DNA of 64,000 bases, taken from the NCBI GenBank assembly GCA_015660915.1, contig JACTTZ010000001.1, forward strand, positions 36,865-100,864, given 5' to 3'. Position numbers and translations under genes: made by a program. Source of the DNA: Methanomicrobia archaeon. Lineage in GTDB: Archaea > Halobacteriota > Bog-38 > Methanoflorentales > Methanoflorentaceae. The notes beneath the pieces were generated by a model. That model ran no database searches, was not told where the DNA came from, and saw nothing but the letters and a program-made list of their open reading frames with translations. Below, piece after piece: positions 18,250 to 24,710 of the stretch (the first letter of the stretch is position 1; the number at the start of each line of letters is the position of its first letter).

Positions 18250-19620
18250 CTAATCGCAGTTGTTGAGCGTCTTGTTAAAATAGCGGCTCAAAAAAAGCCG
18301 CATTCCGTCGATTTCGAGGAGCTCTTCGTCTTTGAGAATCTTAAATCCCTTTTCCATAGCTTGCACTATTGCTTTACTGGTTCGGATGTTTCTAAACTCC
18401 GTCGTTATATATTCGGGGAAGGTTAGATATCTACGATGAAGCTCAACTACATAGCGACCGTCTTCAATGAACGGTCCTGCAAGCACTGAGGCGTCTTCTA
18501 AGTATTTCTTCTTGAACTTGCTCGCGTGTCGCTTTTTTTCCACCGGCGGACCTGCGTGTCTCTCTACTGAAGGGAGTTGCCAAACGAGCATTTCAAACAG
18601 CAGGAGCGCTTCGCCTCGATCGTAGTAGATATCCCCTCGCAGCGCTGAAAAGCCGTGTCGCAGCAGCGCAACCAATATTCCTTTATGCGCTCGCTCGAGC
18701 TGTGGGTAAGCAATGTCATCGACGAGGTTTGGCAAATTGAACTTCACCCCGAAAAGCGCTGTCTTTCGCTTATCTGCAATTGCACGGAAGGCGCTGGTAT
18801 CGAGGGGAACGATCTCGGGGGGGAAAAAATACTCTGTGCATGGCCGTTCTAGGAAGCTCCTTGCAGAATCAATAAACAGAGAGAAACTATCTAGAGAGAC
18901 AGCAGCAGCTACATTTCGCTTTGTATCTACAGGGTCGATAACCGCAAGAGGGCTCCCGAAGGAGCTCCGAGCGTGTTCACCGGTCAAGCTAATACACGTT
19001 CCCACTTTCCAATCTCGCGCATTTGACAACACGTCCTTAAAGGAGCCGTACTTGATGACGAGAAGCTCACAGAGGTACCCAGAGAATCCTTTGACGCGCA
19101 GTTCTGCGCCGTATATCCCCGCTCCCTTTAGAAATTGTTTCAGCAACCTTACATCATCGTGTCTTGCGCCGAGGTGTTCACTTACGTATCGCTGATGAAA
19201 CGGCGTTCTGTCGACTGCTGAGAGCAGTTGGTTTGTATTTTCGATATTGTAATGAGGTACGACATCGATAGCGAAATCGCCACAGCGTGCTTTTACGTAC
19301 GGATGCTCCGCAAAGCCTATGACGTAGCCTTGTACTGCTACCTCTTTCCCTATCTCTAGTCCGTAGCGTTCAAGATCTTCGCGCGAGGTGCTAATGTCAA
19401 ATCCAATGAATATGTCGATATCCCGATCGCCAGAGATCCACGTGTCTCGCGCTGCAGAGCCAATTACTTGTACAGTCGCTTTTAAGCTCCGGCTTTTAAT
19501 GGCGCTCTGCGCTGTTGAAATCACCTGTAGTGTAACTCGATGCAGACGATCACGCTCATCGCGGGAGGGTCTTATTCTTTTCAGCACCTCCGCTTGCACT
19601 CGGGCGAGCTCATTCTTCAT
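18250..19620 (-). CDS. cca: CCA-adding enzyme (class I tRNA nucleotidyltransferase)
   Basis: GSAARDTWISGDRDIDIF NTase motif, 456 aa. Overlaps the ligT stop by 4 nt. Confidence 0.9.
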   Translation of the reverse strand: MKNELARVQAEVLKRIRPSRDERDRLHRVTLQVISTAQSAIKSRSLKATVQVIGSAARDTWISGDRDIDIFIGFDISTSREDLERYGLEIGKEVAVQGYVIGFAEHPYVKARCGDFAIDVVPHYNIENTNQLLSAVDRTPFHQRYVSEHLGARHDDVRLLKQFLKGAGIYGAELRVKGFSGYLCELLVIKYGSFKDVLSNARDWKVGTCISLTGEHARSSFGSPLAVIDPVDTKRNVAAAVSLDSFSLFIDSARSFLERPCTEYFFPPEIVPLDTSAFRAIADKRKTALFGVKFNLPNLVDDIAYPQLERAHKGILVALLRHGFSALRGDIYYDRGEALLLFEMLVWQLPSVERHAGPPVEKKRHASKFKKKYLEDASVLAGPFIEDGRYVVELHRRYLTFPEYITTEFRNIRTSKAIVQAMEKGFKILKDEELLEIDGMRLFLSRYFNKTLNNCD

Positions 19621-20186
19621 AATCGAAATTCCTCGAGCGTATCATATATGGGGCCATTAGGAGTCAGCGTGCTTCTTTTTAGTTGAAAAGAGGAAACATT
19701 GAGATAGCCGACGACAGACGTAGAAAGGGGGGCTATTGTGGCAGCTAACATGTTTAACTCTGTAGGAACGTTCCGCTTGACCCTTCCTAAGGTGATGTGT
19801 GGATCAAATTTCTTGTCCGGTCCTTGCATTCCCTTCAGTGCTTCAACGATTAGGTCGTGTAATGTTTTCATGTCTTCAGAGTCGCTCAATCCTACGTGTA
19901 TGACTCTTATTCTTTTCATGCTCGGAAAGACGCCAATGCCTCTAAGTGTTACGCAAAAAGGGCGATACGAGATAGAGCTTAGTGCTTCAGTAATGGTCGA
20001 GAGCTTGGAAGATGTGATGTTCCCGAGGAAGCTTAACGTTATGTGGGCTATGCATGGATCTACCGGCTTTACCGATGGGAATTGGTCTATTTTCAGTCGG
20101 TCACGTTGGATAGTATGGAGTTTCTCTCGCGTCTCACTATCGAGGTCAATTCCAACAAAAGCTCGAATACTTTGCATGGGCATCAT
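19617..20186 (-). CDS. ligT: 2'-5' RNA ligase / 2H phosphoesterase
   Basis: Two H-x-T/S-x motifs (AHITLSF, PHITLGRV). Confidence 0.85.
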   Translation of the reverse strand: MMPMQSIRAFVGIDLDSETREKLHTIQRDRLKIDQFPSVKPVDPCIAHITLSFLGNITSSKLSTITEALSSISYRPFCVTLRGIGVFPSMKRIRVIHVGLSDSEDMKTLHDLIVEALKGMQGPDKKFDPHITLGRVKRNVPTELNMLAATIAPLSTSVVGYLNVSSFQLKRSTLTPNGPIYDTLEEFRL

Positions 20187-20200
20187 AAATATTTTAATCC

Positions 20201-23039: not shown

Positions 23040-23776
23040 ATGTCTATTTCTCGTCCGCCCTAACCAACGCTGAGCAGCTCGAAGATCTCAAGAGTGTTGG
23101 ATTTCAGGGCTGGGAGGTAATCGCGGAAGGCCCACAGACGTTAGATAAAGATCTCGTTTCATTGATTGAGTATGCAGAGTCCTCTTACGGTCTCGAGATT
23201 AGCGTTCACACCCCGTTTTCTGACTTGAATATTGCTAGCCTCAATAAACCAATTTGGCGGGAAACCCTTAGGCAGATCAAGGCTACTATAGAGGCGTTGG
23301 CAAATCACGCACATATTTTCGTGATCCACCCAGGTTATGTTTCGCCCCTAGCGGCGTTCTGCCCAGACAAGGCGCTGTATAAGAACAAACAGGCTCTAGT
23401 GAAGCTAGCACAATGTGCTAAAGAGCATGACGTAACTGCCACGGTTGAAAATATGGTTAACGTGGACTTTTTTCTCGGTCGGTTTCCGAATGAAATTGAA
23501 GATATGCGTCCAGACGGTGTTGGGTTTACCTTTGACGTTGGTCACGCAAATACGGTCAATGCCATAGACTCCTTCTTGCGAACGCAGATCGATCACGTTC
23601 ATCTTCACGACAACAACGGTCAAACCGATGAACATTTGGCTCTCGGCTTAGGGAACATCAACTGGGACAGAATAATGCGGGCACTTAGACGATACAAAGG
23701 CATTTTCGTTTTAGAATCAAGAACGCTCGATGAAGGCGCTCAAAGCTTGGCTTATTTGAAGCGTATTATGTGCTAG
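23036..23776 (+). CDS. xylose-isomerase-like TIM barrel (AP endonuclease 2 / sugar phosphate isomerase family)
   Basis: Metal-binding HxxE/D ladder VHTPF, HPGY, FDVGH and HLHDNNG. Paralog of the gene at 59866-60672. Confidence 0.7.
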   Translation: MNVYFSSALTNAEQLEDLKSVGFQGWEVIAEGPQTLDKDLVSLIEYAESSYGLEISVHTPFSDLNIASLNKPIWRETLRQIKATIEALANHAHIFVIHPGYVSPLAAFCPDKALYKNKQALVKLAQCAKEHDVTATVENMVNVDFFLGRFPNEIEDMRPDGVGFTFDVGHANTVNAIDSFLRTQIDHVHLHDNNGQTDEHLALGLGNINWDRIMRALRRYKGIFVLESRTLDEGAQSLAYLKRIMC

Positions 23777-23780
23777 AGAT

Positions 23781-24710
23781 TCATGCGTTGCGTTTAGTTT
23801 TCGTATGCTCAAGCCGGTCTCGATAAAGCACTTCCAATTCAAGGAGATCTTCGGCTACTAATGTGTTGGGAAATATCAGTCGAGCCTCTTCTAACAACTG
23901 CGTAGCGTTTGCGTACCGAGAACTTATATGAGTGAGGATTAGCGCAAGCACACCAGCTCTTTGTGCTATTTCAGCGGCTTCAGCTGCTGTCGAATGGCCG
24001 ACAGTCTTCGCGTATTCTCGCAGATCCGTCGCGAGCGTCGCTTCGTGAATCAGTAGGTCGGCGTTTTCAGCAGCGCGCACGACGTGATCTGAGGGACGTG
24101 TATCTCCTGTATATACAATTTTTCTACCGGGCCGTATTGGTCCTATTACTTGTTCTGGAGAGATCACTTGACCGCCGATAGGCACAGATTCGCCATTTTG
24201 GAGGGTTTTGTACAAAGGCCCGGGTTTAAGGCCGAGCTCTTCCGCCTTTTTTCTGTTAAACTTGCCAGGGCGCTCATGTTCTTTAAAAATGTAACCGTAC
24301 GAGTTTGTTCCGTGGTCGACGGCGAAGACTTCGACGAAAAATGAGCCGAGCTCTATTAAGTCGCCGGGAGAGACCTCAATAAAATCGACGTCAAACTGCG
24401 GGTTGATAAGGGCAAACAAGTTTGGAGTTCCTGCCCAACGAGGCCCATAAACTACAAGCTTGTTGTTCCTGTTCTGAAAAGACATTGTATGAATCAGTCC
24501 GGGCAAACCGAGGAAATGGTCAGCGTGCCAGTGAGTAATAAAAACAGAAGACAAGTTAATTCCGGCCCGGCAACGCATCATTTGGCGTTGCGTGCCCTCA
24601 CCACAGTCGAAGAGGACACCTTCTCCATCTCGTTTGATGAGGATAGAAGGAAGACTCCGAGCGACCGTTGGCATAGACCCGCTCGTTCCGAGAAACAGTA
24701 TTTTAAGCAT
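23781..24710 (-). CDS. rnz: ribonuclease Z
   Basis: ITHWHADH metallo-beta-lactamase motif, 309 aa. Confidence 0.9.
   Translation of the reverse strand: MLKILFLGTSGSMPTVARSLPSILIKRDGEGVLFDCGEGTQRQMMRCRAGINLSSVFITHWHADHFLGLPGLIHTMSFQNRNNKLVVYGPRWAGTPNLFALINPQFDVDFIEVSPGDLIELGSFFVEVFAVDHGTNSYGYIFKEHERPGKFNRKKAEELGLKPGPLYKTLQNGESVPIGGQVISPEQVIGPIRPGRKIVYTGDTRPSDHVVRAAENADLLIHEATLATDLREYAKTVGHSTAAEAAEIAQRAGVLALILTHISSRYANATQLLEEARLIFPNTLVAEDLLELEVLYRDRLEHTKTKRNA

Follow-up and report, generated by a model that had tools for sequence, protein, structure and literature searches.

A conserved archaeal gene cluster joins an NrdG2-type radical-SAM activase, a UPF0200–UPF0201 kinase and an MJ1311-family TIM barrel beside genes for tRNA 3'-end enzymes

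Introduction

What could a glycyl-radical activase, a nucleotide kinase and a metal-dependent phosphoesterase-like protein have to do with one another, and with the maturation of tRNA 3' ends? The question is raised by positions 18250–24710 of a 64,000-nucleotide stretch of DNA from a Methanomicrobia archaeon (GenBank assembly GCA_015660915.1, contig JACTTZ010000001.1, positions 36,865 to 100,864 of the forward strand), which we call the window and whose numbering we use throughout. Four closely spaced plus-strand genes at this site encode an AMA-type AAA ATPase, a radical S-adenosylmethionine (radical-SAM, rSAM) protein, a P-loop kinase fused to a COG1931-like domain, and a TIM-barrel protein; the overlapping genes cca and ligT diverge from them, and the RNase Z gene converges on them. 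An earlier note on this DNA, made from the letters and their open reading frames (ORFs), had proposed that the genes form an RNA healing or modification cassette not yet characterized as a unit. We found the seven ORFs, their strands, their overlaps and the convergent RNase Z to be exactly as that note described, and curated models bore out its domain calls for cca, ligT, AMA, rSAM, kinase-COG1931, TIM barrel and RNase Z. Here, we describe how far the arrangement is conserved among archaea, and weigh what it may be for.

Results

The rSAM gene (21343–22089, plus strand) encodes a 248-aa protein that matches the model for NrdG2-type glycyl-radical activases (TIGR02495) at 156.6 bits, above the cutoff of 131.15. 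It is followed by the kinase-fusion ORF (22116–23039, plus strand; AAA_17/18 and PF01877 in Pfam), the start of which is preceded by a GGAG ribosome-binding site. Approximately residues 1–185 of the fusion protein (22116–22670) are a UPF0200 domain, resembling adenylate kinase and other nucleoside monophosphate (NMP) kinases (PDB 3LW7/3H0K, E 3e-22), and the remainder (22671–23039) is a UPF0201 domain (PF01877, COG1931; 4.7e-11, 43.5 bits against a gathering threshold of 26.9). The stop codon of the fusion overlaps the start codon of the TIM-barrel gene (23036–23776, plus strand) by 4 nt, in the sequence ATGA; this last gene encodes a TIM barrel of the MJ1311 family whose metal site is of the endonuclease IV type (PF01261; PDB 3WQO, E 6e-37). 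The gene for RNase Z, the tRNA 3' endonuclease, lies convergent with the cluster (23781–24710, minus strand; TIGR02651, 335.2 bits, cutoff 292.95), and only 4 nt separate it from the TIM-barrel gene in the window.

We compared this neighbourhood with those of other archaea in two scans. In the first, species-representative genomes were scanned with an rSAM alignment, and the window proteins were then compared by phmmer with six-frame ORFs; the window's own lineage was not among the matches listed. In the second, metagenomes were scanned with a narrow TIM-barrel alignment. The taxonomy of metagenomic loci was assigned by similarity to named genomes only, and ORF starts in the compared loci (given below as L numbers) are mechanical calls, such that exact overlaps are approximate. 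Loci of the window's lineage share synteny over the full ~17 kb (SPP, NOG1, CBS proteins and HDAC through to PriS and HisG), with fusion-protein identity falling as low as 54%; taken alone, this synteny proves little. Among the matches listed from other lineages, the order rSAM, kinase, TIM barrel, RNase Z was found in Methanoregulaceae, Methanoculleus nereidis and another Methanomicrobiales metagenome-assembled genome (MAG) (L012, L015 and L016), and the unclassified archaeon SCG-AAA382B04 and a Bathyarchaeota MAG (L013 and L021) have cca-ligT divergent from rSAM, kinase, UPF0201 and TIM barrel. An ANME-2 contig carries rSAM, kinase and UPF0201 as three separate genes that overlap by 4 nt, in surroundings otherwise unrelated. 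The TIM-anchored scan added ~45 further loci with rSAM, kinase, TIM barrel and RNase Z; in these Methanomicrobiales-type loci RNase Z follows the TIM barrel on the same strand, usually overlapping it by 4 or 13 nt. When the TIM-barrel sequences were clustered at 55% identity, a kinase or UPF0201 gene adjoined in 6 of the 7 clusters. Because the linkage recurs in six of these seven deep clusters and in several archaeal phyla, we conclude that the arrangement goes beyond chance. Failure of the rSAM, the kinase fusion and the TIM barrel to co-occur in other genomes had been named in the earlier note as refuting its proposal; we found instead that rSAM, kinase(-COG1931) and TIM barrel do co-occur elsewhere, often with RNase Z and cca-ligT.

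The association with genes for tRNA 3'-end enzymes varies in form. RNase Z lies 1.5–5 kb from the cluster or kinase genes in Bathyarchaeota, Hadarchaeales and an Asgard MAG, and cca-ligT is divergent from the cluster in three lineages. We also noted a trio of genes for an RNase Z-like metallo-beta-lactamase, a THUMP/UPF0020 methyltransferase and phosphoribosyl pyrophosphate (PRPP) synthase, 1.5–3 kb from the kinase gene, in a Hadarchaeales MAG (L005:9277-12109) and an Asgard Kariarchaeaceae MAG (L171:7176-10094), a similar mixing of nucleotide and tRNA genes. One branch of the window's lineage has no TIM-barrel gene where the kinase fusion gives way to RNase Z (L002/L003:8918-9160); L002 carries only a 36-codon remnant ORF there.

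On two contigs, the rSAM and the UPF0200 kinase are fused in frame into one polypeptide (L115:107-1540 and L126:2095-3267), followed by the TIM barrel and RNase Z. The junction between the two proteins reads ...VRIRVRGEGEI[A/T]YF-MKVIGVVGMPASGKGEF... in these fusions. A second kind of fusion, between kinase and UPF0201, was found in the window's lineage, in Hadarchaeales (L005), in L101, in AF_1395 of A. fulgidus and in eight or more representative clusters; in Hadarchaeales the fusion protein stands alone. UPF0201 is a separate downstream gene in L006, L013, L021 and L174, and in Sulfolobus UPF0200 and UPF0201 are the neighbouring genes SSO1041 and SSO1042. The overlapping start and stop codons, together with the in-frame fusions, show that these genes are genetically coupled. 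The UPF0200/UPF0201 fusion was itself noted in 2008, for AF_1395 and a Rice Cluster I methanogen, in the UPF0201 structure paper (PMC2596488). The pair in the window has the same two domains in the same order as SSO1041/SSO1042 and AF_1395, for which structures have been solved; by contrast with what is known of that pair, here and in many other archaea an NrdG-type rSAM precedes it and an MJ1311-type TIM barrel follows it. The literature that we searched on UPF0200/UPF0201 makes no mention of this rSAM/TIM-barrel context, and a literature search for the conserved cluster, the rSAM-kinase fusion, UPF0200 or Mhun_1780-1783 found no description. The component families, the kinase-UPF0201 fusion and AMA are all known already; for the conserved cluster and the rSAM-kinase fusion we found no description, in agreement with the earlier note's view of the cluster as uncharacterized as a unit.

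We next asked what each protein is likely to do. The rSAM motifs CX3CX2C (C34, C38, C41), GGEPT and the N-terminal STIDWPGK are invariant or nearly so, and STIDWPGK aligns with VDGPGI of pyruvate formate-lyase activase, placing the D-x-P-G motif of glycyl-radical activases in the rSAM. Cluster-linked homologs with a full-length ORF scored 152–172 bits against TIGR02495; the truncated call from L012 scored 112, below 131. Among the matches listed, an nrdD-like ORF (detected by phmmer or confirmed, as PF13597 in L010) adjoins the rSAM homolog in 58 of 88 loci, in most of which it lies directly upstream. Methanosarcinales, Hadarchaeota, Micrarchaeota, Woesearchaeota and another Bathyarchaeota are represented among these nrdD-linked loci, and orthologous copies adjoin nrdD in Methanosarcina and in bacteria. 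In a neighbour-joining tree, the nrdD-linked Methanosarcinales rSAMs nest inside a clade of cluster-linked rSAMs, and a C-terminal IRTxExGEE and an N-terminal STIDWxGK are common to nrdD-linked and cluster-linked proteins. On the simplest reading of these sequences, the rSAM would be a single orthologous NrdG, an activase of class III ribonucleotide reductase (RNR) of the NrdG2 type, whose position varies among genomes.

We found no NrdD homolog in the 64-kb window and no nrdD within 10 kb of ~70 cluster loci; a protein search for nrdD aimed at the window's lineage gave only Methanosarcinales-type sequences among the matches listed. The partner nrdD is probably encoded elsewhere in the genome, judging from the orthology of the activase. 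In Methanoperedens, a glutaredoxin-like gene lies before nrdD, no activase gene adjoins nrdD, and the rSAM homolog stands alone elsewhere in the genome; 2 kb from this stand-alone NrdG2-type gene lies a 203-aa ORF for a 'TatD family nuclease-associated radical SAM protein' (L007:10754-11365; TIGR04038, 213 bits). The rSAM resembles the class III RNR system NrdD-NrdG (TIGR02495) in its equivalog score, its motifs and its membership of a clade with copies downstream of nrdD; it differs in that its local partner, by translational coupling and at times by fusion, is an NMP kinase and not nrdD. The statement in the earlier note that the rSAM has no glycyl-radical partner holds for the local context only, because the protein is orthologous to nrdD-adjacent copies of NrdG; orthology to an anaerobic RNR activase with its partner elsewhere, which the note had named as counting against its proposal, is in part what we found. 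RaSEA and QueE were considered as other identities for the rSAM because an arcTGT gene lies 7 kb from the ANME-2 cluster. We rejected both: the protein scored 28–43 bits against QueE models with cutoffs of 206–300, no RaSEA model was among the 25 best of 46 matches, and the score against the NrdG2 model is above its cutoff.

The UPF0200 domain has the features of a kinase of free nucleotides. The P-loop, the NMP-binding motifs MGDxxR and DGxR, and the LID motif RxxRxxxRxRxDD are kept across 14 diverse UPF0200 homologs, the conserved residues being G8, G13, K14, G32, D33, R36, G87, R89, R117, R120, R124, R126, D128 and D129. We modelled the kinase with AlphaFold from 23 sequences (predicted local distance difference test score (pLDDT) 87.9). 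For the kinase, a Foldseek search of the PDB gave AMP-bound 3LW7 as the best fold match (template modelling (TM) score 0.89), followed by AK1, AK5 and UMP/CMP kinases, with structures of the dephospho-CoA kinase CoaE ranking lower. No polynucleotide kinase of the T4 Pnk, Clp1 or Pnkp type was found among the Pfam/NCBIfam matches or among the top 50 Foldseek PDB matches, and no CoaE model in Pfam/NCBIfam matched the protein. The suggestion of the earlier note that this protein is a 5'-OH RNA kinase is weakened by these matches; orthology to dephospho-CoA kinase, which the note had named as counting against its proposal, is not supported by them. Elsewhere, UPF0200 is fused to Maf (P0466) and to dCMP deaminase and occurs as tandem double kinases (P0357, P0358, P0475, P0383), and it resembles the kinase domain of an anti-phage dCTP deaminase. 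Because the motifs are of the adenylate-kinase type, the fold matches are to NMP kinases and the fusion partners include Maf and dCMP deaminase, sequence and model together point to a kinase that would act on free nucleotides rather than on RNA ends.

Foldseek matched the UPF0201 domain to 3C9G (AF_1395), 2PZZ and 3D7A at TM 0.80–0.87. The family has an RNA recognition motif (RRM)-like fold, and RNA binding was judged unlikely in its structure paper (PMC2596488). Its relative PAB1135 is described as binding double-stranded RNA (dsRNA) and as co-operonic with the RNase P subunit Rpp30 (PMC2872656). Kinase-UPF0201 pairs lie among RNA-processing genes in L172 and L174. We also looked for a glycyl-radical motif in UPF0201 and rejected it; the conserved PTE, LNKQAA, PLGxIxV and DWLAPxT are unlike RVxG[YF].

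For the TIM barrel, a profile search gave MJ1311 at 2e-62, endonuclease IV at 3e-16 and ketose 3-epimerases at 3e-10; MJ1311 is by far the nearer relative, with true endonuclease IV well behind and the ketose 3-epimerases almost level with endonuclease IV. The invariant residues H58, H98, E138, D167, H170, H191, D198, H200 and E227 align with motifs of the 'probable endonuclease 4' 5ZHZ. We take these nine positions to be the metal ligands of E. coli Nfo (endonuclease IV), such that all nine ligand positions of the trinuclear metal site of endonuclease IV are kept. Endonuclease IV has 3'-phosphatase and 3'-diesterase activities; MJ1311 reportedly lacks a DNA-binding groove. A single-sequence structure model of the TIM barrel (pLDDT 52.6) was too poor for a fold search. 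In another lineage, the TIM-barrel gene lies 1 nt downstream of the gene for the archaeal UMP kinase PyrH (TIGR02076, 274 bits), which itself follows NAD kinase (L104:8355-10720, L106:9235-10708, L118:5941-8311); PyrH is a second, unrelated nucleotide kinase coupled to an MJ1311-type TIM barrel. An ANME-2 AP_endonuc_2 gene beside arcTGT was considered as an ortholog of the TIM barrel and rejected, with 27% identity over 88 residues only.

The remaining genes of the locus flank this core. The archaeal CCA-adding enzyme (cca, 18250–19620, minus strand) scored 466 bits against the equivalog model TIGR03671 (cutoff 281) and matched Pfam tRNA_NucTransf2 and CAA_C. It overlaps by 4 nt the gene for the 2H phosphoesterase ThpR/LigT, an RNA 2',3'-cyclic phosphodiesterase (ligT, 19617–20186, minus strand; TIGR02258, 143.5 bits, cutoff 65.7), which matched LigT_PEase twice and has both HxT motifs (AHITLS and PHITLG) in its translation. 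In a relative, L001, ligT is split into two overlapping ORFs of 101 and 103 aa (L001:5495-6068), either by a frameshift or by an assembly error. The divergent intergenic region (20187–20233) has, on reading the sequence, an AT-rich TATA-like box (aaatattttaa, ~20186–20197), a putative promoter upstream of the probable AMA start.

The AMA ORF (20201–21295, plus strand; PF23900 PRS2_N, PF00004 AAA, PF23902 lid) probably starts at the ATG at 20234, because the resulting 353 aa is the length seen in relatives. It has the architecture of AMA proteins, with PRS2_N, a single AAA module, a lid and a C-terminal HbYX-like L-F-S; a natural Phe variant of the HbYX motif is known from M. mazei PAN-A (PMC3493965). 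In these features it is like AMA of Archaeoglobus and methanogens, and we saw nothing to distinguish it from other AMA proteins; its place inside the cluster is peculiar to this lineage. We found AMA at the cluster only in loci of the window's lineage (L001-L004, L089-L098, L175). It is absent from L013 and L021, where ligT is directly divergent from rSAM with no AMA between, and from every cluster examined outside the window's lineage. AMA, which the earlier note counted in its four-gene cluster, is a lineage-specific insertion into the divergent region and not a member of the core. That note had also called the association of AMA with cca and ligT reported; PMC3493965 makes no mention of it. 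In L012, L015, L016 and ~20 metagenomic loci, a divergent gene for a CDC48-type double-AAA ATPase lies 1.5–5 kb upstream of rSAM, at AMA's place; the parallel may be coincidence or a recurring tie to AAA unfoldases.

The surrounding window is core informational DNA, with aCPSF1, FEN1, an RNA polymerase operon, EF-1alpha, EF-2 and RNase P RNA. The archaeal RNase P RNA lies at 62320–62609 (minus strand, 216 bits) and the beta-CASP ribonuclease aCPSF1 at 7619–9523 (minus strand); with RNase Z, cca and ligT, these make the 64 kb an RNA-processing-rich region. An Rfam scan of 17500–26000 matched no family. Directly downstream of RNase Z, an 89-aa ORF without a family match (24823–25092, minus strand) is kept in position in relatives (L001, 89 aa; L002, 88 aa; L004, 85 aa; L175, 89 aa). 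A 627-aa ORF amid housekeeping genes (4790–6673, plus strand) has a phage terminase large-subunit domain (TIGR01630 psiM2_ORF9, 70 bits) and may be a provirus remnant. Three tRNA genes (32122–32230, 45474–45570 and 51779–51863) are over-long, at 85–109 nt, which suggests that they carry introns; ARAGORN misses the first of them and assigns an odd four-base anticodon (cgca) to the third.

Discussion

Because start and stop codons overlap and both rSAM-kinase and kinase-UPF0201 fusions exist, we favour, with a probability of roughly 0.45, a composite but genuinely coupled housekeeping operon. Nucleotides would be the common target of the rSAM, the kinase, UPF0201 and probably the TIM barrel, and the tRNA 3'-end machinery would be expressed along with them. 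The overlapping codons and the fusions argue for physical cooperation among the first three or four products. The conserved core would consist, in order, of an NrdG-type rSAM, a UPF0200 NMP kinase, UPF0201 and a metallo-phosphoesterase of MJ1311 type that resembles endonuclease IV. RNase Z usually comes next, and in several lineages the core is divergent from cca-thpR(ligT); AMA, presumably the gene for a proteasomal unfoldase, is an insertion into the divergent region confined to this lineage. Each protein most likely does the job of its family. To judge from orthology, the rSAM would install the glycyl radical on a class III RNR (NrdD) encoded elsewhere; the kinase, from its motifs, fold and fusion partners, would phosphorylate free NMPs and deoxy-NMPs ((d)NMPs); and the TIM barrel, given its ligand positions, may hydrolyse a phosphoester on a nucleotide or a nucleic-acid 3' end by means of a trinuclear metal site. 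Maturing or cleaning tRNA 3' ends would fall to RNase Z, the CCA-adding enzyme and ThpR, all assigned above curated cutoffs. The NrdG activase and the NMP kinase could then form a nucleotide-supply module, together with a TIM barrel that is paired with PyrH elsewhere.

Several observations weigh against this reading. A model in which each protein does its own job leaves unexplained both the fusion of an RNR activase to an NMP kinase and the translational coupling of RNase Z to the TIM barrel, and co-regulation seems too little to account for three tRNA 3'-end enzymes round the core in several phyla. The NrdG assignment would fail if the window's lineage turned out to lack nrdD, and the Methanomicrobiales rSAMs match only positions 2–157 of the 193-position NrdG2 model. 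In L131 and L143, UPF0201 and then the TIM barrel lie between aRF1 and a PRK14562 protein. The dsRNA binding of the UPF0201 relative PAB1135 and its place in an operon with an RNase P subunit (PMC2872656) also count here.

Some of these points favour a system for the healing or maturation of RNA or tRNA 3' ends, close to the proposal of the earlier note. RNase Z, the CCA enzyme and ThpR would then work with the cluster, the TIM barrel would clear a 2'/3'-phosphate or other block from tRNA 3' ends, UPF0201 would tether the kinase to RNA, the kinase would act on an RNA end, and the rSAM would have a second or changed role. Consistent with this, RNase Z is an overlapping operon member in the ~45 metagenomic loci, convergent in the window and a few kb off in other phyla; cca-ligT is divergent from the cluster in three lineages; the TIM barrel keeps the nine endonuclease IV ligand positions; UPF0201 has an RRM-like fold (PMC2596488), and its relative PAB1135 binds dsRNA and shares an operon with Rpp30 (PMC2872656); and kinase-UPF0201 pairs sit amid RNA-processing genes in L172 and L174. 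However, the kinase has full NMP-binding and LID motifs, with no Pnk/Clp1-type structure in its top 50 fold matches, and its other fusion partners are nucleotide enzymes; RNA binding by UPF0201 was considered unlikely in PMC2596488; a sealing ligase (RtcB or Rnl) is missing from the cluster; the rSAM has genuine NrdG proteins as orthologs; and the TIM barrel is dispensable in L002/L003. The likeness to RNA healing-and-sealing cassettes (Pnkp/Hen1, RtcA/RtcB) lies in a kinase and phosphoesterases beside RNA-end enzymes, and the differences lie in a kinase of NMP rather than Pnk/Clp1 type, the lack of a ligase gene and phosphoesterases of other families. The coupling and the fusions do not argue for a Pnkp-like RNA healing pathway. 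The genes proposed as a healing cassette are indeed conserved together, but AMA is not core and the identities of the kinase and the rSAM, with the absence of the TIM barrel in one branch, tell against that function, which we regard as doubtful although still worth holding in view.

It is also conceivable that the genes have no joint function and reflect inherited synteny or the co-regulation of unrelated housekeeping genes. The synteny of the whole ~17 kb in the window's lineage leaves local conservation with little to say by itself, and the cluster is dispersed elsewhere, with rSAM beside nrdD in Methanosarcinales, the TIM barrel beside pyrH in another lineage and the kinase-UPF0201 fusion alone in Hadarchaeales. 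By contrast, the linkage extends across Halobacteriota, Bathyarchaeota and an unclassified archaeon, each with different flanking genes, start and stop codons overlap, and there are two independent kinds of gene fusion. We consider an absence of joint function quite unlikely.

A pathway resembling that of viperin and CMPK2 appears more improbable again. Here the kinase would supply or process a nucleotide that the NrdG-like rSAM transforms by radical chemistry, the TIM barrel would trim phosphates, and the product might, with the same low likelihood, feed or block CCA addition at tRNA 3' ends. The in-frame fusion of rSAM and NMP kinase and their wide translational coupling recall viperin-CMPK2 and the prokaryotic pairs in which viperin is genetically coupled to a nucleotide kinase, for which PADLOC has a separate model ('viperins associated with kinases'); there is no NrdD within 10 kb in the ~70 cluster loci, and the C-terminus of the Methanomicrobiales rSAM diverges from the NrdG2 model. 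However, the rSAM is of NrdG type and not a viperin (NF038283, 34.5 bits against a cutoff of 180); it keeps the activase N-terminal motif and the C-terminal motif common to nrdD-linked orthologs, nrdD-linked copies nest in the same clade, and the locus is a core housekeeping region rather than a defence island. A defence system was rejected, as PADLOC gave generic similarity only (AAA to IetA, the rSAM core to pVip, the kinase to the kinase domain of dCTP deaminase) in a housekeeping context.

Returning to the coupled housekeeping operon, we note a more ambitious version of it. As of PMC4177761, the archaeal guanylate kinase gene had not been identified. UPF0200 might be this missing archaeal guanylate/(d)NMP kinase, physically complexed with the class III RNR activase, with UPF0201 and the MJ1311-type phosphoesterase as accessory subunits, and genetically tied to tRNA 3'-end maturation; we put this forward as an unlikely but specific proposal. 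The cluster would then encode an archaeal counterpart of a dNTP-synthesis complex, to which we give the same slight credence.

UPF0200, UPF0201 and MJ1311 have crystal structures without a known function, and they are now genetically tied to each other. They are also tied, across several archaeal phyla, to an NrdG-type rSAM (by in-frame fusion on two contigs), RNase Z and the CCA-adding enzyme. This linkage suggests concrete substrates and roles for them: (d)NMPs, including guanosine monophosphate (GMP), phosphorylated tRNA 3' ends, and the activation of NrdD. It bears in this way on the gap left by the archaeal guanylate kinase. If it is true that the rSAM has no NrdD partner in the genomes that have the cluster, this activase of the glycyl-radical type would have a new target.

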